Shown piece after piece: positions 1,905 to 60,937 of a stretch of DNA of 64,000 nucleotides (its first letter is position 1; each line of letters starts with the position of its first letter). The DNA comes from Candidatus Omnitrophota bacterium. GTDB taxonomy: Bacteria; Omnitrophota; Gorgyraeia; JAZDFF01. The notes under the pieces are model-generated. The model had not been told where the DNA came from. It ran no database searches and worked only from the letters and a program-made list of their open reading frames with translations. The stretch is taken from contig JAZDFF010000015.1 of NCBI GenBank assembly GCA_043808095.1, positions 2,015 to 66,014 on the forward strand, read 5' to 3'. The position numbers and the translations under genes were made by a program.

Positions 1905-1953
1905 ATCTTTATGGGTTTAAAAAACTATTTTTTAGCACAAATTCTCACGAATC

Positions 1954-1973
1954 CCTGCCTGCCGGCAGGCAGG
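1954..1973. repeat. 20-bp perfect palindrome cctgcctgccggcaggcagg (copy 1 of 3, inverted relative to the other two; flanked by cggatttt / gattcg)
   Basis: Read directly in the sequence. Lies in the ptsH-ptsI intergenic leader. Confidence 0.7.
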
Positions 1974-2074
1974 AAAATCCGAATTTACACAGATTATTCA
2001 CAGACGCAATTCGTGCAGATTCGATAAAAATTCGTGTGGATTTGTGTGAAATTATGTCTTTTCCAGAAATTTCT

Positions 2075-5218: not shown

Positions 5219-5364
5219 TATTAAAAATGATTCCTGAGATTAATTTAGATTACAGTGATTAAATACCTGTAATCGGTTTTTCCGCCATAATGCTTTGGCG
5301 GACCCGCCAATCTTTGTGGCGGGAAAAATCACTGTAATCAAATCCAATATTTTTTTCAACCAGA

Positions 5365-5892
5365 CTACTCCTGGCCTAATTGAAAACGAGCAAACCTTCT
5401 GATAACAATATTTTCTCCGGTTTTAGCGATTAAGGCATGCAGCCTGTCTCTTATCTTAAGACTCTGGTCTTTGATGAAAGGCTGCTCCAGTAAACAATGC
5501 GTCTGGTAAAATCTTTCGGCATCCGTCTCTTTGCCGAGCAGATCCTTCGGGACATCTTCTTGTTTTATATACTGGGGATTCATGGCAACTATCTGCATAA
5601 CCACTTCTTTGGCAAAATTGATAAATTCGTCCGTCTTAGCCACAAAATCAGTCTGGCAGTTAATCTCAACCATGGCGCCGAGTTTTGCGCCCATATGAAT
5701 ATAGGATTCGACTCTTCCTTGTTTAGCCACGAGATCCTGTTTCTTTTTCGCAGTCTCAAGGCCCTTTTTACGCAAAACCTCTATAGCCTTCTCAATATTT
5801 CCTTTTGTTTCCTTAAGGGCGCTGCGGCAATCATTCACCCCGACGCCAGTAAGATTGCGCAGTTCTTTAATTAATTCTACAGATATCTCCAT
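5365..5892 (-). CDS. tsf: Elongation factor Ts (short form)
   Basis: MEISVELIKELRNLTGVGVNDCRSALKETKG is the classic EF-Ts N-terminal UBA-like domain. The start is moved to the internal Met to remove a 41-nt overlap with rpsB. Confidence 0.85.
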   Translation of the reverse strand: MEISVELIKELRNLTGVGVNDCRSALKETKGNIEKAIEVLRKKGLETAKKKQDLVAKQGRVESYIHMGAKLGAMVEINCQTDFVAKTDEFINFAKEVVMQIVAMNPQYIKQEDVPKDLLGKETDAERFYQTHCLLEQPFIKDQSLKIRDRLHALIAKTGENIVIRRFARFQLGQE

Positions 5893-6775: not shown

Positions 6776-7079
6776 ATTTACACCTCCAATGTAAAGACTG
6801 TTGAAAAATAACCTCTGATACCGCAAAGACGCAAAAATCCGCCAAGACGCAAAAATATTATTATCAACATATTCTTTGCGCTTTTGCGGTAATTTTGCGT
6901 TTTAGCGGTGTAAATTCAATTATAAACAGCCTTATGTTGTAAGTTTTAGTTGCTTAATCCAAAATTGCCGATTTTAGTAATATACCTTATTTTATTTGGC
7001 TTGGCAAGTAATTTTTTAACGCAAAGGCGCAAAAAACCATCAAAGCGCTAAAAATACCTTACCGCAAAGACGCCCACCT

Positions 7080-7320
7080 TCGCTAAAGCTTCGGTGGGCA
7101 GTCCGCTGTAGCTGAAGGCGAAAGCACTTCAGCGAAGGCGGACGCAAAAGTACAGAAATAAATTTGCAGTTTTGCTGACTTTTGCGGTTTTGCGGTAATT
7201 TTGCGTCCTTCGATTACACTCAGGACGCAATCCTGAGCCCTTCGACTCGCTCGCCTCTGGCGAGCTCGCTCAGGGCGAATACTGAGCTTGTCGAAGTAGA
7301 GCACAGTCGAATGGATTGCG
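7080..7320. repeat. GC-rich, stem-loop-dense intergenic element (family copy 1) flanked by ACCGCAAAGACGC / TTTGCGGTAATTTTGCG inverted words
   Basis: Local GC is far above the ~35% background. Several hairpins are readable: gcccacc...ggtgggc, gctgaag...cttcagc, gcgtcc...ggacgc, gctcgcc-tct-ggcgagc. It shares cttcgc / agcttcgg / gcgaaggcgga words with 62580-62900. Confidence 0.45.
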
Positions 7321-9109: not shown

Positions 9110-9287
9110 CCTCTTATAGCTCCTTTTAATATCCTAGCAATATTAAGCCTTATAATACTATCATATGCATTGACTTTTGTCTAATGTTTTGATACTATTA
9201 AACGCGAATACACGCGAATCTAACGCTAATGGTCGCGAATTTAGATATTAGCGTTAATTCGCGAAAGATCTAGCGAAAATTAGCGTT

Positions 9288-10232
9288 ATGGTAAAAAAAA
9301 TCCCAGTTGGAGTTATCGGAGTAGGCTATTTAGGGCTTCGGCATGCCCAGACTTATAAACAACTGCCCCAGGCCGAGCTTGTGGCTATCTCGGATATTGA
9401 TGAACATAGGCTTAAGGAGGCATCTTCAACTCTAAATGTAAATAGCATTAGCCAATACCGAACGCTATTTAGCAAGGTAAAGGCAGTCAGTATCGCCACC
9501 CCCACCATCACCCATTATGAAATCGCCAAAGACTGCCTTAGGCACGGAATTGACGTCCTCATTGAAAAACCCATTACCACTGGCCTTGTTGATGCTGCCT
9601 CATTAATCAAACTCGCCCAAAAAAACAAGCTCATCTTACAAGTCGGCCATGTTGAGAGATTTAACAGCGCTTTTTTGGCGGTCTCAAAAATAGCCAAACA
9701 CCCCCGTTTTATCGAATGTCACCGCTTAAGCCCGTTTCCCGGCAGGTCCCTGGATATCGGCGTGGTCGAAGACCTGATGATCCATGATATCGATATTATC
9801 CTGGGCCTGGTAAAATCCGAAATTAAAGAAATCTCTGCTGTGGGCGTAAATGTCCTGACGCCTTTTGAAGATATTGCCAATGCCCGGCTGGTCTTTAAGG
9901 ACGGCTGTGTCTGTAATCTGACCGCCAGCCGTATCAGCGACGAACCCATGCGTAAATTCAGGATTTTTTTAGAAGATACCTATATATCTTTGGATTACAA
10001 AAACCAGGCGGCGGATGTCTATAAAAAGATAGGCGGTAAAATTCATAAAACCCAGCTTCCTGTTGAAAAAGACCAGCACCCTCTGAAAAGAGAACTGCAT
10101 TCCTTTCTCGACTGTGTCGCCAGCCGTCAATGCCCCACGGTTTCCGGCATCGAGGCCTTTAAAGCGCTATCTGTAGCCTTAAAGATTAAAGAGAAGATCC
10201 GTCGGAATATCGAGAAATCTGGTAGAAAATAA
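9288..10232 (+). CDS. Gfo/Idh/MocA family NAD(P)-dependent oxidoreductase
   Basis: 314 aa with an N-terminal Rossmann fold (IPVGVIGVGYLGLRHA) and the family's EKP motif. Transcribed divergently from the MsbA-like gene and immediately upstream of lpxB. Confidence 0.75.
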   Translation: MVKKIPVGVIGVGYLGLRHAQTYKQLPQAELVAISDIDEHRLKEASSTLNVNSISQYRTLFSKVKAVSIATPTITHYEIAKDCLRHGIDVLIEKPITTGLVDAASLIKLAQKNKLILQVGHVERFNSAFLAVSKIAKHPRFIECHRLSPFPGRSLDIGVVEDLMIHDIDIILGLVKSEIKEISAVGVNVLTPFEDIANARLVFKDGCVCNLTASRISDEPMRKFRIFLEDTYISLDYKNQAADVYKKIGGKIHKTQLPVEKDQHPLKRELHSFLDCVASRQCPTVSGIEAFKALSVALKIKEKIRRNIEKSGRK

Positions 10233-10466
10233 GGATGAAATAACTGATCAAAATTTCTAATTCCTAATGCCGAATGCCTAATGAATGCTTAAATTCTTAA
10301 ATGAATAATTTCGCATTAGACATTTAGACATTAAAAAATTAATTAGAAATTAGCCTGCTTGCCCCGAGAAATTCGTAGAATTTCCGGGACTAAAGTCTTT
10401 AGGAATTTTACAAAGTAAAATTCCTAAGGTCCGTCAGGCAGGGATTTAGTAATTAGTCATTAAAAT

Positions 10467-11612
10467 ATGTCTAAGAAAATTATTATAGTGGCCGGTGAGG
10501 CCTCCGGGGATTTACACGCCAGCCTCCTGGTCAAATCCCTAAAAAGCGCTAGCAACGTCAATATGGAATTCTTTGGTCTGGGTGGGACTAAGATGCAGGA
10601 GGCAGGCGTCCATATCTATTACAACACCATCGACCTTGCGGTAGTAGGAATCTTTGAGGTCTTAAAAAATCTCGCTAAGTTCAAGGAGATCTTCCGGCAA
10701 CTGCTTTATAAGATCGATGAAATAAAACCTGACCTGGTTATCCTCGTGGACTACCCCGGATTTAACCTTCGCCTGGCCAAAGAGGTCAAAAAAAGAAATA
10801 TCCCTCTAATCTACTACATCTCTCCGCAGGTCTGGGCCTGGGGAAGGTCGCGCATAAAACAGATTAAAAAATATGTTGATAAGATGATCGTTATCCTGAG
10901 GTTTGAGGAGACCTTTTATCAGTCTTACGGGGTTGATGCCGTATTCGTCGGCCATCCGCTTCTAGATATTGTTAAAACTAATTTTAATAAAGATGAGTTA
11001 TTAAACTCACTTTTACTTGATAAAAAAAATACCACCATTTCTATGCTGCCCGGCTCAAGAGAAACAGAGGTAAGGACGCTGCTTCCGATAATGCTTGAGA
11101 CAGCCAGGCTTATCTCTAAAAAATTACCCGAAAGTCAATTTCTGATTTTAAAATCCGCCTCTTTAAAAGAAGGGTTGTTTCAGGCCATTATGGCAAGATA
11201 CCCCCAGATTAATACGAAGCTCATCAACAACCTGACCTATGAAGGGATAAATGCATCAAACCTGGCCATTGTCGCCTCGGGAACCGCCACACTTGAGACG
11301 GCAATACTGGAAAAACCTATGGTTATTGTCTATAAGGTAAATTTTTTAACCGGATTATACTTAAGGTGGGCAATTAAAATTCCCTACGTAGGATTAGTAA
11401 ATGTAATTATGGGAAGGAAATTTATCCCTGAATTTATCCAGTACCAGGCAAGGCCCGGTAAAATCGCCAGGGAAGTTTTATCCATTCTTGGGGATTCAGA
11501 AAGAATCGCGGCTTTAAAAAGGGAACTCCGTTTCTTAAAAAGCCAACTGGGTTCTTCAGGAGCTACCGAGCGCGCAGCCAAAGAAATATTAAAATTTCTC
11601 GCCAAAAATTAG
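10467..11612 (+). CDS. lpxB: Lipid-A-disaccharide synthase
   Basis: 381 aa. IIIVAGEASGDLHASLL N-terminus and overall GT19 architecture. Confidence 0.85.
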   Translation: MSKKIIIVAGEASGDLHASLLVKSLKSASNVNMEFFGLGGTKMQEAGVHIYYNTIDLAVVGIFEVLKNLAKFKEIFRQLLYKIDEIKPDLVILVDYPGFNLRLAKEVKKRNIPLIYYISPQVWAWGRSRIKQIKKYVDKMIVILRFEETFYQSYGVDAVFVGHPLLDIVKTNFNKDELLNSLLLDKKNTTISMLPGSRETEVRTLLPIMLETARLISKKLPESQFLILKSASLKEGLFQAIMARYPQINTKLINNLTYEGINASNLAIVASGTATLETAILEKPMVIVYKVNFLTGLYLRWAIKIPYVGLVNVIMGRKFIPEFIQYQARPGKIAREVLSILGDSERIAALKRELRFLKSQLGSSGATERAAKEILKFLAKN

Positions 11613-12771: not shown

Positions 12772-12901
12772 TTTTGTTACTATTGGTTACTATGGATTAC
12801 TAAATGCCGGCTTAAAAAAGTCTTGTTACTAAGGGTTACGTAACTTTTGGTAACAGCGAAGCGTAGTAACTTTCAGTAACCTTTAGTAACTTTTCTTAAA
12901 C

Positions 12902-13387: not shown

Positions 13388-13501
13388 CTTTCCCTCCCTT
13401 GCAACCGCAAAAAAAAAACGCAAAATAATCCCTAAAATAAGCGCTCTTTGCAAATAACGCAAAATTTTTGCGGATTTTGCGGAAAATTATTCATTTATAA
13501 C

Positions 13502-13924: not shown

Positions 13925-14636
13925 AACATATTCCCGGCCCCTGCCTTTTGTGCTCGGAGCCTTTAATAATCCTATTTACTTTACTTACCTTTTCTCTTGA
14001 AATAACCTGTTTCTTTTTATTTTCTAGCCGACTTAGGATATCATCCAATTCACTATAACTTATCCCCATCTCTGCCTCATCAGTCTGGCCAGGCCAAAGC
14101 CCGGCTGTAGGAAGTCTGTCGATAATGCGTCTGGGTATCCCCAATTCCCTGGCTAAATTAACCACCTGGCCTTTTAACAAATCTCCTAATGGTATAATAT
14201 CCGAGGCCCCGTCTCCGTGTTTAGTAAAATAACCTGTCATAAGTTCAACCTTATTGCTCGTTCCGCAGACAAGATAATTCATCTTATTAGCGAAATAATA
14301 TAAGACTAACATGCGTAGCCGTGGCTTGAGATTGCTCTTGGCTAGTTTATTTGCCGACGGCAAAACTCGAATCAGGGCATCATAAATCTTTGATACGTTG
14401 ACTTCCTTTGTCTTTATCCTGATTTTTTTCGCCAGAAACCTTGCATCATCCAGGTCTTGCCTTTGGCTATGACAGGGCAGAATCAATCCCAGGACTTTAG
14501 TACCTGCAGCAAGTTTGCATAAAAAGGCACTAACGCTTGAATCCAGGCCTCCGCTTAAGCCCACAACAAAGCCATTTCTACCTGAATCTTTTAACTGTTT
14601 TCTTAGCCAATTAATGATTTTCTTTTTTATAACCAT
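13917..14636 (-). CDS. nadE: NH3-dependent NAD+ synthetase
   Basis: 239 aa. Has the PP-loop FVVGLSGGLDSSV. Confidence 0.85.
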   Translation of the reverse strand: MVIKKKIINWLRKQLKDSGRNGFVVGLSGGLDSSVSAFLCKLAAGTKVLGLILPCHSQRQDLDDARFLAKKIRIKTKEVNVSKIYDALIRVLPSANKLAKSNLKPRLRMLVLYYFANKMNYLVCGTSNKVELMTGYFTKHGDGASDIIPLGDLLKGQVVNLARELGIPRRIIDRLPTAGLWPGQTDEAEMGISYSELDDILSRLENKKKQVISREKVSKVNRIIKGSEHKRQGPGICYV

Positions 14637-14646
14637 ATATAAATAA

Positions 14647-14678
14647 TGATGCCCGTCTTATTAAACGGGCATCTTCGC
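14647..14678 (-). terminator. Possible hairpin terminator (gatgcccgtttaataagacgggcatc) after the small ORF at 14803..14985
   Basis: 8-bp GC-containing inverted repeat followed by an A/T-rich tract on the minus strand. The U-tract is not clean. Confidence 0.3.
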
Positions 14679-14802
14679 CCCACTTGAAAGCCTATTCATA
14701 AGGGGCGCATCTATTTACGTTGCTGCCTGACGGTGAGACAGGCATATATTCTTTTATTCTTATGTATTTAAAATATGAAATAATCTAAACCAGGATAGAC
14801 TG

Positions 14803-14985
14803 CTATTTCTTCTTCTGTCCTTCTAATAGCATCATAGTTATGCCCAACAGGAGAAAGGTATTGGTCAGAATTAAAAGCGATTGCGACGCTACCCCATAGA
14901 CCGGATTCATAGTCACGCGAGAAATCGCTGCCACTAGAAGTAAAATCATCGCTGCTACTACAAATAGATTAGAAATTCCTTTCAT
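14803..14985 (-). CDS. Small hydrophobic (2-TM) protein, hypothetical
   Basis: 60 aa, two predicted TM helices and a lysine tail. No recognisable family. Confidence 0.3.
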   Translation of the reverse strand: MKGISNLFVVAAMILLLVAAISRVTMNPVYGVASQSLLILTNTFLLLGITMMLLEGQKKK

Positions 14986-15194
14986 ATCTAATCCTCCTTT
15001 CCTTTATAAATAGGGCTTCACAAAAATCGTTCAGCCCTTGATTACAGAGATTAAGAATAGATTCCAAAGATTAGTATTCGAAGATAAATCGCTGTAATCT
15101 TTTTTAAAATCACTGGAATCATAGGCTGGAACGACTTTCATGACAGCCTATTATAAACCTACTTTAGTTATTATATAAATATATATAGCCTGTG

Positions 15195-17024
15195 TCAATT
15201 GTTTTCTTTATGGACCTTATCCTCATTTGAGGCGGTATTTAGCCTGGCCCCAGAAGCAGCGGTCGCAGATTCTATATAAAGATTGGGGTAGTCAAAAAGA
15301 TCAACTGGGCGGCCTTTTTCCAATTTACTTCCAGAAGGGCTATAAAGGATATTTAAAAAGCGCGGAAAACCGCTTTCAACATCAACTACTTCAGCAATCT
15401 CCTGGTTATTGAGCTTGACCAGACTTCCTATAGGATAAACAGAAATTTTTTCCACTAAGGCCTTTACTATATTGGGATCAAATAATCTAACTGTCTCATT
15501 TTTAATCACCTTCATTGCCTCATAAGGGCTAACCGCTTCTTTCCAAGGCCGAAGATGGGTCATCTCCTCAAAGGCGTCGCACACAGAAACAATTTTTACC
15601 GAATCCTGTAATTGGTCTGCCTTAAGCCCTTCTGGATAACCGCTGCCGTCCAGGCGCTCATGATGGGAAAAAGCAATACTCCTTACTATTTCAGGAAGAA
15701 ATTTTGCCTGCTCCAAAATTTGCTTTGAATAAACGGGATGCTTCTTAAGTTCTTCATGTTCGTGCTGGAGTAATATAGCGGACTTTAAAATAATGCCTTT
15801 AAATCTAACAAACCCGATATCATGCAGGAACGTACCCCTTCCTAAATCAGTGAGTTCCTGAAGATCAAACCCCAGCTTTATTCCAACTATAAGGGAAAGT
15901 ATAGTCACATTTAATATATGGCAATATAAATACGCCTGTTCGTTATCCTTGTTGGCCAATTTTATTAAATTGCGATCGTCTTTTTTTAGCGCCTCGATTA
16001 ATTGCTCGATAAAAAGATCAACGGCCTTATAATCCAATAACTCATCTTTTTCTGCGCGATTAAATATGTTTTCTGCCAAAACAAGGCCATTGTGATAAAA
16101 CTGCTCAGCCTCCTTTTCATTTCCTTGCGCCTTAAGAGGTTGTTTTGCTATCTCCTCCTGCCTGGGGGTAGATATCTTTTTATCTTGGCCGTGCCTGGTA
16201 ATTTCAACGCCTAAAGTCGAGGTCTGGGCCTGGATAATGCCAACATCGATTATCGTGGCTTTGTGAGTGAATCCTGTCAGGAGGCTTAACTCACAAATAC
16301 GATTTATGCGCCGAGGAATCCCGCCGCTAGATTCATAAATAACAGAGACAGCCTCGGGTGTAAAAATAGGCTCTTTTCTTCCAGCAACAGCCAAGCGGTG
16401 ATCAATGTAATTTTTTGTCTCATCATAATTTAAGGCATCGAGATGGCTTTTTACGGCAATCCTCTGTTCAAATTGTTTTATGCCATCGATCTTTTGTCTT
16501 AAATCGGATTGACCAACCAATATCAACGTTAGCAGGAATTTATCCATAAGTTGAAAATTTAAAAGCATGCGTAACTGTTCAAAAATCTTAGGATCATCTA
16601 TGATATGGGCCTCATCAATAATTACAATGGTATTTTTACCATCATCATGGTTGTTGTATAAAATATTCTTGATGCTCTCAAGGGCCAGGGATTCCGCAAA
16701 AGAGGATGCCCCGGACTTATGAATCAGGTCTTTATCGCCAAGGCTCATTCCAATATTAACTAAATTTTCTGCAGAGGTTGAGCGGGGATGGGTAATAAAG
16801 GCAACCCTGAATTTCTCGGGGTTCAATTCCTTTAAAAGGGCATTGGCAATAACCGTCTTACCGCAACCAAATATCCCGGTAAGCATGGCCGCGCCCAACA
16901 TCTCCTGCGCGCAATAGGTCAATTTTAATAAGGCATCCTTGTGCTGGGGAGAGTAATAAAGAAACTTGGGATCCGGGCTGTTACGGAAAGGTTTCTCGGT
17001 TAGGCCCCAATATGCTTCATACAT
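15195..17024 (-). CDS. ExeA/GspA-like AAA ATPase (PEP-CTERM/EPS-locus type) fused to a C-terminal HD-GYP c-di-GMP phosphodiesterase domain
   Basis: 609 aa. The N-terminus MYEAYWGLTEKPF...GIFGCGKTV (Walker A) matches the three shorter paralogs in the window. The C-terminus carries FLHDIGF ... HHERLDGSGYPEGL ... VCDAFEEMTHLRPWK, i.e. the HD and GYP motifs. Confidence 0.8.
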   Translation of the reverse strand: MYEAYWGLTEKPFRNSPDPKFLYYSPQHKDALLKLTYCAQEMLGAAMLTGIFGCGKTVIANALLKELNPEKFRVAFITHPRSTSAENLVNIGMSLGDKDLIHKSGASSFAESLALESIKNILYNNHDDGKNTIVIIDEAHIIDDPKIFEQLRMLLNFQLMDKFLLTLILVGQSDLRQKIDGIKQFEQRIAVKSHLDALNYDETKNYIDHRLAVAGRKEPIFTPEAVSVIYESSGGIPRRINRICELSLLTGFTHKATIIDVGIIQAQTSTLGVEITRHGQDKKISTPRQEEIAKQPLKAQGNEKEAEQFYHNGLVLAENIFNRAEKDELLDYKAVDLFIEQLIEALKKDDRNLIKLANKDNEQAYLYCHILNVTILSLIVGIKLGFDLQELTDLGRGTFLHDIGFVRFKGIILKSAILLQHEHEELKKHPVYSKQILEQAKFLPEIVRSIAFSHHERLDGSGYPEGLKADQLQDSVKIVSVCDAFEEMTHLRPWKEAVSPYEAMKVIKNETVRLFDPNIVKALVEKISVYPIGSLVKLNNQEIAEVVDVESGFPRFLNILYSPSGSKLEKGRPVDLFDYPNLYIESATAASGARLNTASNEDKVHKENN

Positions 17025-17240
17025 TTGTAAATTCCTTTATCCAACTAATTTTTAGTATCGGATGCATACGGATTTTAGCGCCTGCCTGCCGGCAGGCAGG
17101 GATTCGGGCGGATAAATTCTTATCCGCGACATCCGTAACCATCCGTTTGAATCCGTGATAAAACATTTGAGTTATTAACTGGTCTGATGTATTTTCATAA
17201 GGTTGTTCGGTTAACCCCCAATATGCTTCATACATATTTA
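17025..17240. repeat. ~215-bp leader repeat (copy A): RBS + palindrome cctgcctgccggcaggcagg (17081..17100) + duplicated first ~20 codons of the ATPase gene (MYEAYWGLTEQPYENTSDQ)
   Basis: Near-identical to 19958..20172. The fragment ATG sits 2 nt after the Wzc stop codon. Confidence 0.7.
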
Positions 17241-19133
17241 TTTTTTGCCCTCTTTTTCTTTGCCATAATAGCGGTATTGATAATAGTAATAATGAGAATG
17301 GACCATCTCGGACTGCGGAGTAATACAATTTAAGACAACGCCTTTAACCTGGGCACCGGTAGATTCTAATTGTACCTTTGACCTTAGTAATGCACTCCTT
17401 GGAGTCCTGCCCACATGATAAACCAATATCACCATATCCGCCTTTTGCCCGATAATGGATGCATCAGTAACCGATAGAACAGGAGGAGAATCAAATAAGA
17501 TAATATCATAATTTGTCTTTAGTTCTTCAATTAAGTTATTCATTTGATTTGAGCTCAATAAAGTCGGCGGATGACCGTGTAATTGACCGGCTGTTAAGAT
17601 ATGTAATTTATTCAGGCCAGGAACTTTTAACGCCTTATCCCATTCCACAGAGCCCATAAGGATATCGGTAAAATTATTTACAGACTCGTTAAATTTTGCC
17701 TTTCCGCTTAAGATGTCGGTTAGGCCGGATCCGACTTTTAAACCAAAAAGATTATGTAAAATAGGCCGTCTTAAATCAGCATCTATGAGGATCACCCTCT
17801 TGCCTCTTTGGGCGATAGCCATGGCAAGATTAGCGACAGTCAGAGATTTTCCTTCTCGCGGAGCTGTCGAGGTAATAAGTATTGATTTTGCATTTTCTTT
17901 ATTTTGAAAAGTTGACCAGACATTAGTCTCTAAAATATTGTAGGCCTCGGCAAGGGTAGATTCTCTCGAAGTATTCATTAGCAATTTGTCCTTCATCTCT
18001 TTAACCTCTTGCGAATAGCTGATACGGCCATGGGGCCAAAACATTACCCGCGGCCTCTTAATATGCTCCAAAAAGGGGATTATTCCCAGTACAGGCAATT
18101 TTATAATATTTTCCACGTCCTCAATAGTGCCGATAGAGGTATCCAAGTTCTCAACTACGAAGGCAAGGATAAAACCAAGCATTAATCCCATTAACGAGCC
18201 TGCAGTAAGATTCAGGCGTTTGTTTGGACTGATAGGATGCTTGGGTTCAGTGGCCTGGCTTACCAGCGTAACATCTGAAGCCTTTTCTGCCTCAGCAATT
18301 CTGGCAGCTTCAAACTTTTCTCGCAGCATCCGGTAGGTCTGCTCACTTATCTGGGCATCTCGCTTCAGGCGGGCATATTCCAGTTCACTGGCGGGAAGAG
18401 TCTTGGTCTGTTCTTCTAACTGGCTAATCTCTTCTTTCAGGCGAATTATCTGAGGATGTTTCTCAGTAGCTTTGGTAATGAGTTCGCTAATCTGGCCTTT
18501 TAATTCGGCAATTCTTTTTTCAAGTTCGACGGCCACTCCTGTAACAGCCTCTTTTTCTTTAAAGACCTTTAACCTTTCTTCTGCCTGATTTAATTCCTTC
18601 TCTACTGCGGCGAGTCTTTCTTGAATGAACTGACGGGTTTCGCTTAACTCTTTGCGTTTTTGGTTTAAATTTTCCTCCATATAGACCTGGATAGTCATAT
18701 TGGCAATACGGGTTATCAGGCGAGGGTCGCTGCCCGTTACAGATATCCGGATAATATTGGTGTCTTTCATCTTATCGGCAGAAACACTCCTCTGAATATC
18801 TCCAATAATTGTCTCTTTATCCTTATCAGGCGTCTTTTCGCCAATCAAGCCGAGTTTTTTAGCCACATCTTCAGCCATCTTACGGCCTTCAATAACCTTT
18901 ATTTCAGTGTCTAAGGGGTCACCCCGTGTCCAGGAAACCCTTTCTAAAATAGTGCTAATAACTGTCTTTCGTTGCTCATACCTTACAGCTGCGGAAGTCT
19001 GAAATACAGTTGGCTGCGTCTTCGTATAAAACGCCGCTAATAAAAACGAGATAAGAAAAGCAGAGATAATAACGACCTTTCTTTTACGCAATATCCTTAG
19101 ATAATCCTGAAAATTTAATTCGTATTGGGGCAT
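17238..19133 (-). CDS. Polysaccharide co-polymerase / BY-kinase (Wzc-like chain-length determinant with C-terminal tyrosine autokinase)
   Basis: 631 aa. N-terminal Wzz domain with a coiled coil, P-loop ITSTAPREGKSLTVANLA, a DxD motif and a C-terminal tyrosine cluster HSHYYYYQYRYYG. Confidence 0.8.
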   Translation of the reverse strand: MPQYELNFQDYLRILRKRKVVIISAFLISFLLAAFYTKTQPTVFQTSAAVRYEQRKTVISTILERVSWTRGDPLDTEIKVIEGRKMAEDVAKKLGLIGEKTPDKDKETIIGDIQRSVSADKMKDTNIIRISVTGSDPRLITRIANMTIQVYMEENLNQKRKELSETRQFIQERLAAVEKELNQAEERLKVFKEKEAVTGVAVELEKRIAELKGQISELITKATEKHPQIIRLKEEISQLEEQTKTLPASELEYARLKRDAQISEQTYRMLREKFEAARIAEAEKASDVTLVSQATEPKHPISPNKRLNLTAGSLMGLMLGFILAFVVENLDTSIGTIEDVENIIKLPVLGIIPFLEHIKRPRVMFWPHGRISYSQEVKEMKDKLLMNTSRESTLAEAYNILETNVWSTFQNKENAKSILITSTAPREGKSLTVANLAMAIAQRGKRVILIDADLRRPILHNLFGLKVGSGLTDILSGKAKFNESVNNFTDILMGSVEWDKALKVPGLNKLHILTAGQLHGHPPTLLSSNQMNNLIEELKTNYDIILFDSPPVLSVTDASIIGQKADMVILVYHVGRTPRSALLRSKVQLESTGAQVKGVVLNCITPQSEMVHSHYYYYQYRYYGKEKEGKK

Positions 19134-19141
19134 ATCTTATC

Positions 19142-19957
19142 TTAGGCCTCTAAATCTGCAGCTGCCTCTTCAATAATAGGAGAATCGATTAGCGCCAGCT
19201 TCCTGCCAAATCCAGTAAGTAAAGCTAAATCACAGATATTGTTTATCCTGCGAGGTATTCCGCCTGATTTTTCATATATTGTATTAAGCGCTGAATCATT
19301 AAATAAAGGGGCGTGTCTTCCGGTAATCAATATACGGTGTAATATGTATTTGACTGTATCTTCGCGATTCAACTTATCTAAATAACAACGGATAGCGATC
19401 CTCTGGGCTAAGGGCTTATTGGCCTCAACAATCTCTTTTAATTCCGGTTGACCCAAAAGTAAAAGGGTAAGCAAAAACTTATCCTCCAGCTGGAAATTTA
19501 AAAGTAATCTCAGCGCTTCCCATACTTGTTCGTCACGGATAATATGCGCTTCATCAACAATAACTACCGTCCGCCTGCCGTCCTTGGCGTTATTGACCAA
19601 TATATTATTTAATGTATCTACTACTACGTTCGCCAGGACTTCAGTCTTTTTTGTAGGCAGGTCCTTTGCCCCAAGACCAGCAGCTATAGCCATCAGAAGT
19701 TCTATATAATCAAATTGGGGGTTAGCCACAAATGCAATCCTGTATACGTCCCTGCCCAGTTCTTTTAATAAGGTCCTGCCTAAAAGGGTCTTGCCGCAAC
19801 CAAAAACCCCGGTCATAATCGCCGACCCCTTTTGTTCTCTTACCGCATAAAGTAAACGCGATAGCCCTTCTTCATGTTGCTGCGAATGATACAAGAACCT
19901 GGGATCAGGCGTATTCTCAAAAGGTTTTTCTGTTAATCCCCAATACGATTCGTACAT
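19142..19957 (-). CDS. ExeA/GspA-like AAA ATPase (EPS-locus secretion ATPase family)
   Basis: 271 aa. MYESYWGLTEKPF... Walker A GVFGCGKT and Walker B VVIVDEAH. Confidence 0.75.
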   Translation of the reverse strand: MYESYWGLTEKPFENTPDPRFLYHSQQHEEGLSRLLYAVREQKGSAIMTGVFGCGKTLLGRTLLKELGRDVYRIAFVANPQFDYIELLMAIAAGLGAKDLPTKKTEVLANVVVDTLNNILVNNAKDGRRTVVIVDEAHIIRDEQVWEALRLLLNFQLEDKFLLTLLLLGQPELKEIVEANKPLAQRIAIRCYLDKLNREDTVKYILHRILITGRHAPLFNDSALNTIYEKSGGIPRRINNICDLALLTGFGRKLALIDSPIIEEAAADLEA

Positions 19958-20172
19958 CTACAAATTCCTTTATTCAACTTATTTTTAGTATCGGATGCAT
20001 ACGGATTTTAGCGCCTGCCTGCCGGCAGGCAGGGATTCAAGCGGATAAAATAACTTAATCGCGACATCCGTAGCCATCCGTTTGCATCCGTGATAAATAA
20101 CCCTTTAGTTATTAACTGGTGAGAGGTATTCTCAAAAGGCTTCTCAGTCAGGCCCCAATATTGTTCATACAT
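19958..20172. repeat. ~215-bp leader repeat (copy B) with palindrome at 20014..20033 and duplicated gene-start fragment (MYEQYWGLTEKPFENTSHQ)
   Basis: Aligns with 17025..17240 along its whole length. Differences in the coding-like part are mostly synonymous. Confidence 0.7.
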
Positions 20173-20232
20173 CTTTTAATACACGAATTCCACGAATTGC
20201 CACACTAATATTCACTTCCCCCATTCAGTGGA

Positions 20233-21087
20233 CTAATTGTTTAGAGAGAATAAAACATTGGTGGTCTTTTCCAGTTTAGTAATATCAATTCTTTTATTTG
20301 AATTATCCAATTCAAATGCAGCATAGTTAAATTTCTTCATGTATTCTGATAATTGGCTTAATTGATACCCAAGCAGGGGATAAGCAGTTGGAGCAATTTC
20401 ACAAATTATCGCTGGCAAGTTATCACAACATTCAAAATAGTTACTAAGACCTTTTAATACAGGAAACTCGAAACCCTCAGTGTCAATTTTTATCAATGTA
20501 ATGTTATCTAACGCTTTTTCTTTTATATAACTATCTAGCCTGTGAATAGGCACCTCCTTAATTTCCCTTATTGTATCATTAGACATAAAACCTGGAACAA
20601 TTGTATTCCAACCAATATTTTGAAGATTTGTAACAGCTATTTTTTCTATACCCTCCCTTTCGCCTAAAGCGCACTGGTTTACAATAAAGTTATATCCTGG
20701 ATTCAAGAAGGTAACATCTCTAAGTTTTGAAAAATATTCCTGAACAGGTTCAAAGCTATGCACATGACCAGACTTCCCAACAAGCCCCAAAGCAACCGTA
20801 GAAAGATAGCCGATATTTGCACCGACATCTATAAACGTATCCCCCTTCTTCAATATTTTATTCATAGCTTCGACAATCTCTATTTCATAAATTCCCAAAT
20901 ACATATTTTTAACAGCTGAATCGTAATTAAAATCAAATCTGAATACACTCCCACTTTTCAAAGCTTTATTAAAAGATGTTTTTCGAAAAATAAATAAAGA
21001 TCTTACTTTAGCATGGAAGCGTAAAAAGAATTCTTTGGGGTTACTTACTAGCATACAAACAATCCTTTGTAATCGATAAACATTCAT
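20233..21087 (-). CDS. FkbM-family SAM-dependent methyltransferase
   Basis: 284 aa. FIDVGANIGYLS motif of the FkbM methyltransferase domain. Confidence 0.7.
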   Translation of the reverse strand: MNVYRLQRIVCMLVSNPKEFFLRFHAKVRSLFIFRKTSFNKALKSGSVFRFDFNYDSAVKNMYLGIYEIEIVEAMNKILKKGDTFIDVGANIGYLSTVALGLVGKSGHVHSFEPVQEYFSKLRDVTFLNPGYNFIVNQCALGEREGIEKIAVTNLQNIGWNTIVPGFMSNDTIREIKEVPIHRLDSYIKEKALDNITLIKIDTEGFEFPVLKGLSNYFECCDNLPAIICEIAPTAYPLLGYQLSQLSEYMKKFNYAAFELDNSNKRIDITKLEKTTNVLFSLNN

Positions 21088-21138
21088 AATTTAAACCACG
21101 AATTTATCATCGTAAAATTAGTGTAAATTTGTGTGCAA

Positions 21139-22206
21139 TTAGTGTCTATTCGTGCCTCTATCTTCTATATCCCAAACGCTTTTTCTACGCTTTCCGATAA
21201 CCATTAAGACCGAGATAACCGCAAAAACTAGGCCCGCCTGGATAAGAAGCATTATTGCATCAAATCCAGGATCTTGCCAGAGCACAACTGCGCTTAAACC
21301 AAGTATCAAGGAAATGGAATAGATAAATAATACCGCTCCCCTAAAGTGCAACCCGAGCTCTACCAGGCGATGATGGAAGTGATCAAGCGCCGCGTACTCA
21401 AACCATTCTATAATATTCTTGATTTTTTTGGTATATACCCGCGCAATGGTAGTAAAAGTCATATCAAAAATCGGTACCCCCAAAATCAAAATGGGGACAG
21501 TTATGGCCACTACATTATCCTGGGCCCAGTTGCCCATTATAGCTATGCAGGCAAGGATAAAACCTAAGAAAGTACTGCCGCTATTTCCTAAGAAAATCTT
21601 CGCCGGGTGAAAATTATACCTTAATAACCCGAGACAACCGCCAGCTAAGGCAAGACAGATGGCCGCTAATTGTAATTGGCTGGTCAGATAACAAACGACA
21701 AAAAAACAAATACTGGTAATAACGGCAAGGCCGGTAGCCAAACCATCCAGACCATCCAGGCAATTCAAGGCATTGGTAATACCAATAATCCATATAATAG
21801 TCAAGATCCATTCACCCGATAGCCCCAGCCAGTTATTAGGGAGAAAAGTCAATACAATACCGAATTTAATAACCAAAATAGAGGCCAATAGCTGAATCAA
21901 TAACCTTAAAGTAGCTGATAACCCCTTTTTGTCGTCGATTAAACCAGTTATGAGAATAATAAGGCTACCAAGGAGTAACCCTTTTGCCGGTAACCTGAAA
22001 TCTCTGTCTTTAATCAATAATATCACACTTAAAAAGAAGGCAATCGATATAACCAAGCCACCTAAAATAGGCATGGGTCGCTTATGGATGCTGCGTTCCT
22101 TGGTTGGATAATCTAAGAAATTAAACCAGCCGGCAACCCTTATGAAGAGAGGGGTGGCAAGATACGATACTAAAAATGAAAAAAGAAATATTTTAAAAGA
22201 TGTCAT
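21139..22206 (-). CDS. Polyprenyl-phosphate N-acetylhexosamine-1-phosphate transferase (WecA/MraY family, priming enzyme)
   Basis: 355 aa, ~10 TM. Has GLIDDKKGL (DDxxG) and NALNCLDGLDGLA motifs. Confidence 0.8.
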   Translation of the reverse strand: MTSFKIFLFSFLVSYLATPLFIRVAGWFNFLDYPTKERSIHKRPMPILGGLVISIAFFLSVILLIKDRDFRLPAKGLLLGSLIILITGLIDDKKGLSATLRLLIQLLASILVIKFGIVLTFLPNNWLGLSGEWILTIIWIIGITNALNCLDGLDGLATGLAVITSICFFVVCYLTSQLQLAAICLALAGGCLGLLRYNFHPAKIFLGNSGSTFLGFILACIAIMGNWAQDNVVAITVPILILGVPIFDMTFTTIARVYTKKIKNIIEWFEYAALDHFHHRLVELGLHFRGAVLFIYSISLILGLSAVVLWQDPGFDAIMLLIQAGLVFAVISVLMVIGKRRKSVWDIEDRGTNRH

Positions 22207-22817
22207 ATTTGTAACATAAATCTCAAACTCTTGAAGCCTTCGGCATACTTGACTCTTCCCTGAAACCCTCTAAAATTTGCGCAAGAGGTGGCACTCTCTA
22301 TGATGCTTAAGCCAGGCACGCGCGTTTTATCTACTTGTGAATGATGGATCTTCAAAAGCTCCAATTTTTCTTCTAAAACATCCCCAATATCTGCAAATAC
22401 GTCTGGCTGAAAATCTTGTGTTGTCGGGACCTCATAAAATAAAACATTTTTAATATAGCGCGATGCTGAGATTGCTGCCTGGGCAAGTGCACGATGGTCC
22501 TGGTGGATATCATTAGAATAATTAAATAAAATCAAGTCTGGGTTTGTTTGGTTCATCACACCTTCTATTATTTGGATTAGGTCTCTACTTACAGTAATTT
22601 TGGTGTCTGGGAAACCTCCCCAGAATAGTCTCTTGACCTTTAAAAATCCGCAAGAAGCCTCCTGCTCTTTTCTTCTAAATTGTGCATCTGAACCCACTTC
22701 TCCTTCAGTCAAAACCAGCATATAAATGCTACAATTTTTCTTTGCATATTTTAGTAAAGTACCGCCGCAGCCGAATTCTATATCATCCGGATGCGCACCA
22801 ATGGCTAATATGTTCAT
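22203..22817 (-). CDS. PIG-L/LmbE-family N-acetylglucosaminyl deacetylase
   Basis: 204 aa. AIGAHPDDIEFGCGGTL (HPDDxE zinc-binding motif). Confidence 0.75.
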   Translation of the reverse strand: MNILAIGAHPDDIEFGCGGTLLKYAKKNCSIYMLVLTEGEVGSDAQFRRKEQEASCGFLKVKRLFWGGFPDTKITVSRDLIQIIEGVMNQTNPDLILFNYSNDIHQDHRALAQAAISASRYIKNVLFYEVPTTQDFQPDVFADIGDVLEEKLELLKIHHSQVDKTRVPGLSIIESATSCANFRGFQGRVKYAEGFKSLRFMLQI

Positions 22818-22981
22818 TTTTTCTCCTTATTTAGGGCTTTACAAAATTCGTTTCGCCCTTGATTACGGAGATTAGAAATTGATTCCAGAGATTAAAGCTC
22901 CACGAGAAATCGCTGTAATCATTCTAAAATCACTGTAATCAACAGCCCTCAGGTTAATTTCGTGAAGGGCTGATTATAATA

Positions 22982-24022
22982 TTAACATATCTTTTTAATT
23001 ACCTCAATAACTCTTTTTTGTTCATTGGGTTTAAGGGACGGATATATCGGTATAGAGACTGCCGAATTCCAGGCAGCCTCTGCTCGGGGGTAGCTGCGTT
23101 GGCCTAAATATTTATGCAAAAGTTTGTATACAGGTCTTTCGCAGATAACATTGTTTCTTTTTAGAAAATTTAATGCCTTCCTCAGGTCTTTTTTAATCCT
23201 AATTACATAACGGAAATAGATATGTCCTTTCGTAGATTTCGGTGAATCGAAATCACAATTAGAAAACGCCTTATTATACCTTCTAGCTAAATATCTTCTT
23301 TGGTTAATAAATTTATCTAATTTTTTAAGTTGGCTCATACCGAGTGCCGCCTGAATATCAGTCATCTTATAGTTGAACCTTAGCTTGAATGATTTTTTCT
23401 TATCGTAATCCCTGAGATCTCGGACTTTGTCTAATAAGCTTAAGTTGTTAGAAAATACCATCCCGCCTTCTCCTGTTGTAAGTAATTTGGTGGTATAGAA
23501 TGATGTCATGCTTAGATCCCCAAAGGTCCCAACCTTTCTACCAGAATATTCAGCTCCAATTGCCTGGGCACAATCTTCAATTACAGGTATTCCTAACTTT
23601 CTAAAAGGCAATATATCTACGGGTGAACCAAACATATGGCTGACGATTATCGCTTTAGTTTTTCTAGTCAGCTTCTTCTTGGTATCAATAAATGAAATAT
23701 TAAAATCGTCGGCGTCAATATCTGCAAATTTAGGTCTGGAACCTACATACAAAATAGCGTTTAAGACAGCGCTACATTGATAGGTAGACAAAATCACCTC
23801 ATCTTTTTCCTTTATACCAAGTGCGAGAAAGCAAAGATGTAAAGCGGATGTTCCAGAGTTAACTACCAACGCACCTTTAACATCCAGATATTTAGCAAAA
23901 CGCTTCTCAAACTCAAATACAAATTTCCCTTGACTTATATGTCCAGATTCTAAAACTGCTAAAACGCAATCAATATCATCTTTAGAAAGCGTAGGCCTAG
24001 AATGAGGAATCATTCTCTGCAT
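22982..24022 (-). CDS. DegT/DnrJ/EryC1/StrS-family sugar aminotransferase (PLP)
   Basis: 346 aa. Family-typical layout with SFYTTKLLTTGEGG (active-site Lys region). Confidence 0.8.
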   Translation of the reverse strand: MQRMIPHSRPTLSKDDIDCVLAVLESGHISQGKFVFEFEKRFAKYLDVKGALVVNSGTSALHLCFLALGIKEKDEVILSTYQCSAVLNAILYVGSRPKFADIDADDFNISFIDTKKKLTRKTKAIIVSHMFGSPVDILPFRKLGIPVIEDCAQAIGAEYSGRKVGTFGDLSMTSFYTTKLLTTGEGGMVFSNNLSLLDKVRDLRDYDKKKSFKLRFNYKMTDIQAALGMSQLKKLDKFINQRRYLARRYNKAFSNCDFDSPKSTKGHIYFRYVIRIKKDLRKALNFLKRNNVICERPVYKLLHKYLGQRSYPRAEAAWNSAVSIPIYPSLKPNEQKRVIEVIKKIC

Positions 24023-54857: not shown

Positions 54858-55670
54858 TTAGGTAAAGCTTTCTATCTCATCTTTTATGATTATTTCATCA
54901 ACAACAGAGGCCTTTTCTATAAATCCGGTTAAAAGACCAAGATCGCAGATACGGTTAATCCTGCGCGGTATACCTCCAGAGAAATCAAAAATAGTTTTTA
55001 ATGCTTCTTCTGTAAAAATTGGAGCGTCTCTTCTACTTACTTTAAGTCGATGAAGAACGTAGTTCTTTGTCTCTTCTTGGTTTAAGGCGTTTAAATAACA
55101 TTTTATCGCTATCCTTTGTTCAAAAGGTTTATTGTCTTCGATCTTTTGCCTCAATTCTGGCTGGCCGAATAACAACAGGGTTAAAAGAAATCTATTCTGT
55201 TGGTGAAAGTTTAAAAGAAGCCTCAATTCATTAAAAACCTGGTCATCCTGAATGATATGCGCCTCATCAACAATAATCACGGTATCTTTACCTTCCCGGT
55301 AATTTGCCATGAGGATATTTTCTAAAACCTCGTGTAGATAATCCGTAGAGATTTCTGTTTTTTTAGTGGGCAGTTCTATCTCTTTTAAGTTCCTTACAAT
55401 TGCCCTAAGTAGATCGACATACTCCAATTGGGGATTGGTAATGGATGCTACTTGGTAATGCTCTTTCTTGAGTTCATCAAAGATAGCCTCGGCCAAAACA
55501 GTCTTTCCGCAACCAAAAATTCCGGTTAGCATAGCTGCCCCCACTCGTTCCTTAATAGCATAAAGCATGCGCGATAAGGCCTCTTGGTGCTGATTAGAAT
55601 AGTAAAGAAAACGCGGGTCAGGGGTATTTTGAAATGGCTTCTGATTTAGGCCCCAATATTCTTCGTACAT
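54858..55670 (-). CDS. ExeA/GspA-like AAA ATPase (EPS-locus type)
   Basis: 270 aa. MYEEYWGLNQKPFQNTPDPRFLYY, GIFGCGKT and IIVDEAH. Confidence 0.75.
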   Translation of the reverse strand: MYEEYWGLNQKPFQNTPDPRFLYYSNQHQEALSRMLYAIKERVGAAMLTGIFGCGKTVLAEAIFDELKKEHYQVASITNPQLEYVDLLRAIVRNLKEIELPTKKTEISTDYLHEVLENILMANYREGKDTVIIVDEAHIIQDDQVFNELRLLLNFHQQNRFLLTLLLFGQPELRQKIEDNKPFEQRIAIKCYLNALNQEETKNYVLHRLKVSRRDAPIFTEEALKTIFDFSGGIPRRINRICDLGLLTGFIEKASVVDEIIIKDEIESFT

Positions 55671-55744
55671 ATTATTTTAACTTACTCACTTACTCATTAT
55701 AATAAAGATTAACGAAATTGTCGAATAAAACAATCATTTAGATT

Positions 55745-56539
55745 CTATTCAAAACCTTTTATCTCTTCTTGAACAATATCATCGTCTATAAGGTCAAACT
55801 TTTTGATAAATCCTGCCAAGAGGCACATATCGCATAGACGGTTAATTCTACGTGGTATACCGCCAGAATAATTGTAGATTGAACGAAGGGCTCTTTCAGA
55901 AAAAATCGCGGCTGTGCGATTGGCAACCTGCAAGCGGTGAACAATATATTTTATGGAATCTTCCGGGGTTAAGCCGTCTAAATGGGCCTTTACATTAATC
56001 CTCTGCTCTAATTGTATATTCTCTTCAATTTTCTGCTTTAATTCTGGCTGGCCCAAAAGCAATAATGTTAAAAGAAATCTGTCTTGCAGTTGAAAATTTA
56101 AAAGCAGCCTTATTTCTTCAAAGACATTCTCGTCATTTATGGCGTGTGCCTCATCAATAATAACTACGGTTTGTTTACCGTTTCGCATATTGTTTAATAA
56201 CGCGTCATTAAGAATGTTCAAAACATCTGCTTTTCTTAGGGGGGCAGGATTGCCTAATTGATAAAGAATCATCCTTAAAAGCTCGATATCATCGAGCTTG
56301 GGATTAGCTATAAAGGCAGTTTTATACTGCTCGCTGCTGAGTTCCTTTAATACTGCTTGAGCAAGCATAGTCTTACCACAGCCAAATACACCCGTAAGCA
56401 TAGCTGCGCCCATCTTCTCTCTTACGGTATAGATAAGACGCATTAATGATTCCTCGTGTTGACTTGAACGATAAAGAAAACGCGGGTCAGGGGTATTTTG
56501 AAATGGCTTCTGATTTAGGCCCCAATATGCTTCGTACAT
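55745..56539 (-). CDS. ExeA/GspA-like AAA ATPase (EPS-locus type)
   Basis: 264 aa. MYEAYWGLNQKPFQNTPDPRFLY, GVFGCGKT and VIIDEAH. Confidence 0.75.
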   Translation of the reverse strand: MYEAYWGLNQKPFQNTPDPRFLYRSSQHEESLMRLIYTVREKMGAAMLTGVFGCGKTMLAQAVLKELSSEQYKTAFIANPKLDDIELLRMILYQLGNPAPLRKADVLNILNDALLNNMRNGKQTVVIIDEAHAINDENVFEEIRLLLNFQLQDRFLLTLLLLGQPELKQKIEENIQLEQRINVKAHLDGLTPEDSIKYIVHRLQVANRTAAIFSERALRSIYNYSGGIPRRINRLCDMCLLAGFIKKFDLIDDDIVQEEIKGFE

Positions 56540-60600: not shown

Positions 60601-60697
60601 TTCGTCTATTTTATTAACGGATGCATACGCCTACCAACAAGGCAGACAGGGATTTCTGCGAATTCGCTTGTTTGACTATCTGATAAAGTTAAAGGGC

Positions 60698-60937
60698 TTA
60701 AGAAGATGCAAAGCCTGAGAACGTGGACTCGCCGTAATCACCGCGTGCCGCAGTGTCTACTCCGTACTTCCCCTTGATCAGTAAATCGCCCTGACACAAC
60801 GTCCTCAGCGAACTTAGCGCGAACACGCCTTCGACTATGAATCCGACCCCTGTATAGCACTGGCAGCTCAACACTGCCTGCTCAGGGTTAAGTTTTACCC
60901 GGGTGATTTCGGGTCTGAATTTAGGTCGTCTGGACAT
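60698..60937 (-). CDS. Small GC-rich ORF (79 aa, Cys-containing) of unknown function; candidate precursor peptide or small protein
   Basis: Strong SD GGAGGTGA 4 nt upstream of ATG (MSRRPKFRPEITRVKLNPEQAVLSCQCYTGVG...). Local GC ~50% versus ~35% in neighbours. Sits between the GxxExxY/rSAM-SPASM genes and the ABC exporter. Confidence 0.4.
   Translation of the reverse strand: MSRRPKFRPEITRVKLNPEQAVLSCQCYTGVGFIVEGVFALSSLRTLCQGDLLIKGKYGVDTAARGDYGESTFSGFASS

Follow-up and report, generated by a model that had tools for sequence, protein, structure and literature searches.

Repetitive extragenic palindromic (REP) sequences and bacterial interspersed mosaic elements (BIMEs) of enterobacteria and pseudomonads are short GC-rich palindromes or composite hairpins located in spacers and between cistrons. 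They are multi-copy, dispensable and variable between relatives, and are known to influence the stability of mRNA and the ratio at which neighbouring cistrons are expressed. Miniature inverted-repeat transposable elements (MITEs), such as the Correia elements of Neisseria, ERIC, RUP and BOX, are small structured non-coding repeats near start codons that show presence/absence polymorphism and can bring promoters, ribosome-binding sites (RBS) or processing sites. Here we describe a cassette that occurs twice in a 64-kb stretch of contig JAZDFF010000015.1 from Candidatus Omnitrophota bacterium (the whole stretch is called the window below), upstream of two genes encoding ExeA/GspA-like ATPases. 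In both cases the start of the ATPase gene is preceded by an ATG with about 16-20 codons of an ATPase N-terminus, then by a structured core of ~155 nt, denoted C, and then by a Shine-Dalgarno sequence. The explanation that we prefer, with a probability of roughly 0.55, is that C is a conserved hairpin leader module recombined into ATPase 5' ends via the N-terminal homology, leaving a pseudo-start, or upstream open reading frame (uORF), as a scar.

The cassette shares features with several described systems and differs from each of them in others. As in the case of REP and BIME, it contains a repeated palindrome (a 20-nt sequence denoted PAL, with three copies in 64 kb), and C lies between the genes of a Wzc-like protein and an ATPase. 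Unlike REP and BIME, PAL has neither a GTAG/CGTC tag nor a conserved flank, and its sequence is the same in many phyla, REPs being species-specific; C is longer, consists of phased hexamer units with an element-specific "code", and is situated inside a coding 5' end, with the N-terminus duplicated. In contrast to MITEs, neither terminal inverted repeats nor a short target duplication was detected for C (the flanking copies are ~47 nt long and 77-79% identical), and its spread appears to be driven by homology among paralogs and not by a transposase. The order of elements, a short ORF that precedes a structured leader with a Shine-Dalgarno sequence and spans one arm of the main stem, resembles leader-peptide attenuators and uORF control (trp, erm, cat; termination-reinitiation), but the cassette has no conserved regulatory codons, conserved uORF end, alternative hairpins or terminator, and its uORF, unlike those of known attenuators, copies the N-terminus of the regulated gene itself. 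Finally, PAL is similar to the Rickettsia palindromic elements and the GC clusters of yeast mitochondria, being a small palindromic insertion in spacers, tRNA genes and in-frame coding sequences, with empty and filled sites, but differs from them in its length of only 20 nt, the lack of a target duplication, and the identical sequence across phyla and in phage contigs.

Structure of the cassette

The two copies, 17025..17240 (locus A) and 19958..20172 (locus B), align end to end with 84% mean column identity and two small indels. All cassette-related genes are on the minus strand, and locus B is the first in the direction of transcription. It comprises fragment B (an ORF of 54 aa at 20008..20172, ATG at 20172), core copy C-B (19962..20119) with PAL at 20014..20033, and the gene of ATPase271 (19142..19957), an ExeA/GspA-like AAA ATPase. 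ATPase271 is directly followed by a Wzc-like chain-length determinant/tyrosine autokinase (17238..19133), and then by locus A, with fragment A (72 aa, 17017..17235, ATG at 17235), core copy C-A (17029..17182) with PAL at 17081..17100, and the gene of ATPase609 (15195..17024), which combines an ExeA-like AAA domain with an HD/HD-GYP-type domain in one protein. The end-to-end alignment, the perfect 20-bp palindrome in both copies and an RBS before each real gene had been claimed in the earlier note, and all three are found; the Shine-Dalgarno sequence is AAGGA, 8 nt before each real ATG (17037-17033 for ATPase609, 19970-19966 for ATPase271).

The core is ~135 nt long, or ~155 nt with the PAL insert. 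The order of its parts is CCAGTTAATAACT, ACGGAT units, a small hairpin, PAL, the inverted block ATCCGT-ATGC-ATCCGA, CTAAAAATWAGTT, and the Shine-Dalgarno sequence; in C-B these are CCAGTTAATAACT, 3-4 phased ACGGAT units, the small hairpin, PAL, the inverted ATCCGT/ATCCGA units, CTAAAAATAAGTT, and the Shine-Dalgarno sequence. The unit array consists of three perfect ACGGAT units and a fourth G/CGGAT-like one, phased by 10 nt. In C-A, ACGGAT is found at 17156-17151, 17146-17141 and 17136-17131, and GCGGAT at 17127-17122, with the small hairpin at 17127-17108 and the inverted units at 17073-17058.

The cassette is clearly structured and non-random, as had been supposed. The folds are more stable than those of shuffled sequences (z of -3.8 for copy A and -3.1 for copy B), and ACGGAT-N4-ACGGAT units together with the inverted ATCCGTATGCATCCGA block give 6 matches versus 0.12 expected. 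In the consensus fold, C forms a single multi-branch stem, a small loop of which holds the Shine-Dalgarno sequence; 86.6% of the stem cells are paired, compared with 20-43% when the partners are slid (5 sequences), and pairing shuffles are not significant with only 5 sequences. The covariance model R1 scores C-A at 186 bits and C-B at 190 bits. No mutually exclusive hairpins and no alternative pairing backed by covariation are seen in the consensus fold, and CCAGTTAATAACT... and ...ATAAAGGAATTT, with which C begins and ends, show no complementarity to each other, so that there are no terminal inverted repeats, the inverted arms being internal. Scanning for sigma-70 promoters and intrinsic terminators yields nothing in the cassettes, and Rfam 15 at a permissive threshold (E up to 1) yields no cis-regulatory RNA family match in 14000-23000. 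The ACGGAUG sequence resembles the CsrA consensus, but the ACGGAT motifs take part in base pairs, and different hexamers are used by other members of this scaffold (see below). Of the 56 window genes tested, the two cassette-bearing ATPase genes are the only ones whose first 60 nt recur upstream.

Conservation in related genomes

ATPase609 has orthologs P0123 and P0124 with 63-65% identity. The gene of P0124 (65%) occurs in two Logan contigs that were assembled independently, L244 and L245; in L244 it is followed by the same genes as in the window (a 59-aa ORF, NadE and AsnC). At locus A of L244, the Wzc stop codon is followed by 5 nt, an ATG-initiated fragment MYNEYWGLTEKPFKNTPGQLIA... (a 52-aa ORF), C, the Shine-Dalgarno sequence and the real ATG. 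The L244 core lacks exactly the 20 nt of PAL.

The sequence of C is 92% identical between copies A and B (143/155), and the L244 copy is 87% identical to C-A and 92% to C-B (117/134 and 125/136, respectively). At the same time, synonymous sites are saturated between the two lineages, with the proportion of synonymous differences (pS) being 0.72 in the gene of the ATPase-HD fusion, 0.77 in nadE and 0.72 in wzc. The adjacent spacers of the window and L244 align no better than shuffled sequences, whereas C scores 0.88-0.91. The hexamer units and stems are invariant across the three copies, the differences being confined to spacers, the loop of the small hairpin, a patch at the junction behind the fragment, and the last 4 nt ahead of the ATG. 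Three of the four substitutions in the stems give G.U pairs on the sense strand, and there is no compensatory pair among the three copies. Hence, C is conserved beyond the neutral rate between two lineages, and its base pairing is maintained. Conservation in a related genome had been named in advance as a test of the cassette, and this expectation holds.

The same data bear on the trivial explanation, an assembly artefact caused by a collapsed or chimeric repeat. The source is indeed a metagenome-assembled contig, but the divergence of the two copies ranges from 8% to 25% among segments, their flanks are unrelated, the gene bodies are only 50% identical, and the same architecture is seen in L244 and L245, assembled independently from other sequencing runs. 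The probability of an artefact is negligible.

In contrast to L244, contig L242 has no cassette, though the two are 94% (wzc) and 88% (ATPase-HD) identical at the nucleotide level. Over its first 39 nt, the L244 fragment agrees with the native N-terminus of L242 in 36 positions, while the real N-terminus of L244 agrees with that of L242 in 31 of 39, and the genes of L244 and L242 become nearly identical again from codon 14 onward. This pattern fits either of two histories, conversion from a cassette-bearing donor with crossovers in the N-terminal homology, or loss in L242 by direct-repeat recombination. The N-terminal fragments, and likewise the cassette, are absent from 86 other related ATPase loci and from L247 and L248.

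Upstream fragments and native start codons

The upstream ATGs appear to be displaced native start codons, because they hold native start positions and match the N-termini of native orthologs. In particular, the ATG of fragment A (MYEAYWGLTEQPYENTSDQLIT..., 17235..17017) is situated 2 nt past the Wzc stop codon (17240-17238), and in contigs L242 and L243, the distance between the Wzc stop and the ATG of the ATPase-HD gene is 6 nt, while in L246 the genes overlap. At the other end, the TGA stop of fragment A overlaps codons 2-3 of ATPase609. Fragment B (MYEQYWGLTEKPFENTSHQLIT..., 20172..20008) stops 50 nt upstream of the real ATG; its first ~59 nt correspond to an ATPase N-terminus, and the remainder reads through the 5' arm of C and PAL. 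Upstream of it there is a native spacer of 60 nt (20173..20232) with remnants of phased ATTCGTG units and the native start context, separating locus B from an FkbM-type methyltransferase gene (21087..20233, minus strand), the first in this gene order. The closest ortholog of ATPase271, P0002 in contig L001 (79% identical), has a single start and no cassette; its start is preceded by a phased CACGAAT/ATTTGTG hairpin and then by "gtgtatgaaaaaATGTATGAACAATATTGGGG", the counterpart of which at fragment B is "gtgtattaaaagATGTATGAACAATATTGGGG". Among ten N-termini, the best nucleotide match of fragment B is this L001 ortholog (42/48 nt). Thus, two statements of the earlier note stand here, that the fragments reproduce the ATPase N-terminus and that the ATG of copy A lies 2 nt behind the Wzc stop.

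Two other origins of this arrangement are rejected. If two ATPase genes had once stood in tandem at locus B and the first had been deleted, fragment B and the body of the B gene would not both be orthologous to P0002, as they are. Against an intron or translational bypass, no intron family is matched, the real gene is equipped with a Shine-Dalgarno sequence and an ATG of its own, and a gap of ~210 nt would have to be crossed.

As had been noticed, the frames of fragments A and B part after codon ~22 through a 2-nt indel. The ATG and the first ~22 codons are present in all three cassettes, while the frame and the stop differ, the uORF lengths being 72 aa (A), 54 aa (B) and 52 aa (L244, where the uORF ends 33 nt before the real ATG). 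When uORF A and uORF B were compared with 5.8e9 and 1.84e9 proteins, nothing but self matches was obtained; uORF A is annotated as a hypothetical protein in the source metagenome-assembled genome (MAG).

The predominance of synonymous differences between the fragments, reported in the earlier note, is real, with pS of 0.96 and the proportion of nonsynonymous differences (pN) of 0.10 over 16 codons. Still, it does not indicate selection on a leader peptide: the two real N-termini show the same pattern (pS 1.04, pN 0.13), and thus the synonymous bias is inherited from functional paralog N-termini. At the orthologous position, fragment A of the window and the L244 fragment have pS 0.48 and pN 0.15, and the respective real N-termini 0.63 and 0.14.

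The main rival to the scar explanation is that the uORF has a selected function as a translated leader or decoy start, so that translation of the fragment, or a peptide mimicking the ATPase, controls the ATPase via ribosome-dependent remodelling of C (attenuation or termination-reinitiation coupling). It would explain why all three cassettes have retained the ATG, 52 or more open codons and the family-conserved residues, and why each uORF traverses the 5' arm of the main stem and ends 0-50 nt before the real ATG. Moreover, the uORF start at locus A holds the native coupling position behind Wzc, the constraint on C is strong, and the stem substitutions are G.U-compatible on the mRNA strand. Yet the three copies do not share the frame past codon 22, the length of the uORF or the place of its stop, the substitution pattern of the fragments is the same as that of functional N-termini, and gene conversion is documented in this genome (see below). 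In the cassettes there are no mutually exclusive hairpins, no terminator, no Rfam family and no conserved sequestration of the Shine-Dalgarno sequence. In addition, the cassette is missing in the close relative L242 and in ~90 homologous loci, and the other members of the leader scaffold have no such uORF. On this balance, a regulatory leader or attenuator, which was one half of the interpretation offered earlier, seems rather unlikely.

The N-termini themselves are informative about the way the cassette arose. Among the four window N-termini, every pairwise identity lies between 71% and 81% (34-39 of 48 nt), and pairs from one locus are no closer than pairs from different loci. This argues against simple target-site duplication, which is rejected. 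For the same reason it is very unlikely that C is an autonomous or non-autonomous mobile element (MITE- or REP-like), inserted site-specifically after codon ~16 of ExeA-like ATPase genes with a target duplication of ~50 bp. The insertion point is indeed identical in two paralogs and a relative, the boundaries of C are clean and its conservation is high, close relatives show presence/absence, and the genome is rich in related hairpin repeats. However, the within-locus N-terminal copies are only ~77-79% identical, no closer than cross-locus ones, and the right-hand copy in L244 is not a native duplicate (31/39 versus 36/39). Besides, C lacks terminal inverted repeats, other scaffold members have no duplication, and we know of no bacterial transposition mechanism with a target duplication of ~50 bp.

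The tails of the three fragments have the same indels and the same junction CCAGTTAATA, and the locus-A tails resemble the "ENTPDPRF" paralog type and not the A type "RSTPDPKF". As the indels and the "ENTPDPRF" type are shared even at locus A, the tails travel with C. The gene bodies at loci A and B are 50% identical (ATPase271 versus the ATPase domain of ATPase609, protein level) and the cores are 92% identical, hence the cores share a much more recent history than the genes. Furthermore, PAL occupies the same site in both window copies and is absent from L244, so the copying between A and B postdates the PAL insertion.

These observations also bear on an old partial tandem duplication of the gene 5' end, inherited vertically and kept by selection, with independent losses and no transfer between paralogs. 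The position between Wzc and the ATPase-HD fusion is orthologous in the window and L244, and loss by direct-repeat recombination would be easy and would yield exactly the L242 state. But the divergence of the A and B gene bodies compared with their cores, which have the derived PAL insertion in common, the absence of the cassette from the closest B ortholog, and the type of the locus-A tails make this history improbable.

Origin of the cassette

Four ExeA/GspA-like ATPase paralogs are encoded in the window. The two others (56539..55745 and 55670..54858, within 54858..56539 on the minus strand) have no cassette, and their first ~68 nt are homogenised: they share 47/48 nt at the start and ~68 nt with one mismatch, the proteins being 55% identical. 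Segments 55603-55670 and 56472-56539, differing by one base, form a short gene-conversion tract at the N-terminus. Judging by the sequence, N-terminal gene conversion between ATPase paralogs of this genome is directly visible.

We suggest that C enters when ATPase paralogs recombine (gene conversion or homologous recombination) within the strongly conserved sequence that encodes their N-termini. Both arms of the donor, the N-terminal fragment to the left of C and the full N-terminus to the right, would map to the same ~50 nt of the recipient. The product would then consist of the native start with ~16-20 native codons, C, and the Shine-Dalgarno sequence with the ATG and the complete gene, and the "MYE.YWGL..." upstream ORF would be a scar comprising the displaced original start codon and a frameshifted tail. 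Footprints of recombination between paralogs were the other half of the earlier interpretation, and it is the better supported one, given the displaced native starts, the presence and absence of the cassette in relatives, and the 47/48-nt conversion elsewhere in the window. In addition to locus A, the cassette is found in the window at a second paralog (locus B), whose closest ortholog lacks it.

As for the consequences, at locus A the cassette would swap the native translational coupling to Wzc for its own start, driven by the Shine-Dalgarno sequence behind a stable multi-branch stem, and C may act similarly to intercistronic hairpins of the REP/BIME type or to a structured leader. The scar ORF is likely still translated, at locus A by coupling to Wzc. 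Its ribosomes would open the 5' arm of C and come off 0-50 nt short of the real ATG, and this translation may help to expose the real start. The sequence of the scar peptide itself is probably irrelevant.

Several considerations weigh against this explanation. There are only three independent instances of the cassette, in two lineages; no donor locus was identified; and a gain in L244 looks the same as a loss in L242 by direct-repeat deletion. The right-hand N-terminus is only ~79% identical between the cassettes, whereas its travelling together with C predicts about the same conservation as in C. If the locus-A cassette was inherited vertically, the fragments would have kept the ATG, the open frame and family-conserved residues while synonymous sites became saturated, and such retention would need repeated gene conversion or real selection on the uORF. 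A pure scar would also leave the very strong conservation of C unexplained, and the promoter scan, the terminator scan and Rfam are uninformative on the cassettes.

Related leaders in the window

The RBS, the palindrome and the "cggatgcatacgg" block do not make up a device specific for the ATPase genes. They are general scaffold parts, which are also found before ptsI and an ABC-transporter gene. The ptsI leader (1905..2073, minus strand, PAL at 1954-1973), a distant scaffold member according to the alignment and the covariance model, has a C-like arrangement with PAL, CTAAAAAATAGTT and ATAAAG, in which CACGAAT/ATTCGTG units replace ACGGAT/ATCCGT and no N-terminal duplicate is present. Three stem pairs are changed on both sides compared to C, and model R1 scores this leader at 25 bits (E 0.058) over the full model length. 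Moreover, a decayed copy of the 3' half of C (60601..60700, minus strand), with a degenerate palindrome and TATGCATCCGTTAATAAAA, is located directly upstream of the ABC-transporter gene. Thus, as far as the alignments go, C appears to be a general leader scaffold and not an ATPase-specific one.

Nearly every sizeable spacer of the window contains a hairpin, the arms of which are built of short units, either phased (by ~10 nt) or tandem, and the unit sequence is specific for each element: CACGAAT, CGCGAAT, GATTACAG, GACGCAAAA, GTTACTA or CTAATGC. Spacers with phased-unit hairpins are 2400-2560, 5215-5370, 6825-7230, 9198-9290, 10240-10470, 12777-12890, 13460-13500, 56567-56660, 58746-58855 and 61427-61454. 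Hairpins of the same style are observed in relatives, e.g., in L001 upstream of P0002.

Another leader module is represented by two 111-nt copies (14998-15108 and 22819-22929, 77% identical), consisting of GATTACAG/CTGTAATC arms, AAGGGC..GCCC and an RBS. The copies are located directly upstream of unrelated genes, a 60-aa ORF and the gene of a PIG-L-type deacetylase. A weak and spurious match to the Rfam miRNA family MIR9563 at 15013-15149 coincides with the hairpin of this module.

A broader generalization is possible, though doubtful: C could belong to an undescribed Omnitrophota class of modular "coded" leader hairpins, with complementary arms of phased element-specific hexamers, exchanged as cis-regulatory units, and PAL itself could be an ultra-small mobile insertion distributed across bacterial phyla and phages.

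The 20-nt palindrome

The palindrome PAL, CCTGCCTGCCGGCAGGCAGG, has three copies in the window (1954-1973, 17081-17100 and 20014-20033) versus 0 expected. Relative to L244, where the empty site is at 1335-1350, it is a clean 20-nt insertion with no target duplication, the surrounding cassette being ~90% identical. A scan of 185,579 species-representative genomes yielded at least 120 matched stretches versus ~0.5 expected; the matches listed include Patescibacteria, Bacteroidota (with cultured strains among them), Omnitrophota, Planctomycetota, Proteobacteria and others, with the identical sequence. In IMG/VR there are 35 stretches with PAL and none with any of three control palindromes, so that a generic abundance of GC-rich palindromes is rejected as an explanation.

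PAL begins with CCTG. The flanks of 121 copies are not conserved, except for a weak preference for A/T at positions -1 and +1, and no GTAG or CGTC tag is found at the PAL end in them. PAL is enriched beside short repeat arrays (37% versus 15% of control positions, p = 2e-9). It also occurs inside D and variable loops of tRNAs; in particular, ARAGORN identifies a 92-nt phage tRNA-Met with PAL as the variable arm. Some copies are within long ORFs that stay open through PAL. The possibility that PAL generally forms the tip of longer hairpins is rejected, since self-complementarity of the flanks does not exceed that at random positions. When PAL was sought in metagenomes together with its local flanks, 0 matches were obtained, and a literature search for the PAL sequence found no publication containing it.

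Some genomes (L034, L024, L027, L048 and L074) contain variant palindromes, e.g., CCTGCCTGCGGTAGGCAGG, with several copies close together, and PAL in some of them is nested in, or lengthened by, further CCTG/CAGG repeats. The sequences of these variants suggest local families, possibly formed by slippage of the tetranucleotide arms.

Genes of the locus

The four ATPase paralogs of the window score 192-224 bits against TIGR03015 (the XrtA/PEP-CTERM system-associated ATPase; 211 bits for ATPase271), under the curated cutoff of 324.5 bits. According to these scores, they are best described as ExeA/GspA-like AAA_22 ATPases in an exopolysaccharide locus, and membership in the TIGR03015 equivalog is not established. 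In the relatives L001 and L242, the B-type ATPase is separated from Wzc by a block of five genes (encoding an ATPase-like protein, PqqD, a radical SAM protein, ScmC and a methyltransferase).

The fusion of an ExeA-like AAA domain with an HD/HD-GYP-type domain right after Wzc is kept in several Omnitrophota lineages with 41-65% identity (the window, L242, L244, L246 and L248). This conserved fusion and its position suggest that polysaccharide export is linked to a nucleotide second messenger.

The 60-aa ORF between ATPase609 and nadE (14803-14985) corresponds to the 59-aa ORF of L244 (3314-3493), with 68% identity, pN 0.20 and pS 0.62. It probably encodes a real small hydrophobic protein.

Implications

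At least 120 species-representative genomes, as well as phages, contain an identical 20-mer as a discrete insertion, which raises a broader question of how PAL spreads. The cassette itself, if the scar explanation is correct, would be a case of a non-coding leader module moved between paralogs through the homology of their coding 5' ends. Such a transfer would rewire translational coupling in a polysaccharide-export operon and leave behind a decoy start codon. Scars of this kind could pass for regulatory leader peptides or be entered as genes by mistake; one of them is annotated as a hypothetical protein in the source MAG. Finally, C is conserved more strongly than the neighbouring proteins, which makes it a candidate new cis-regulatory element in an uncultured phylum.

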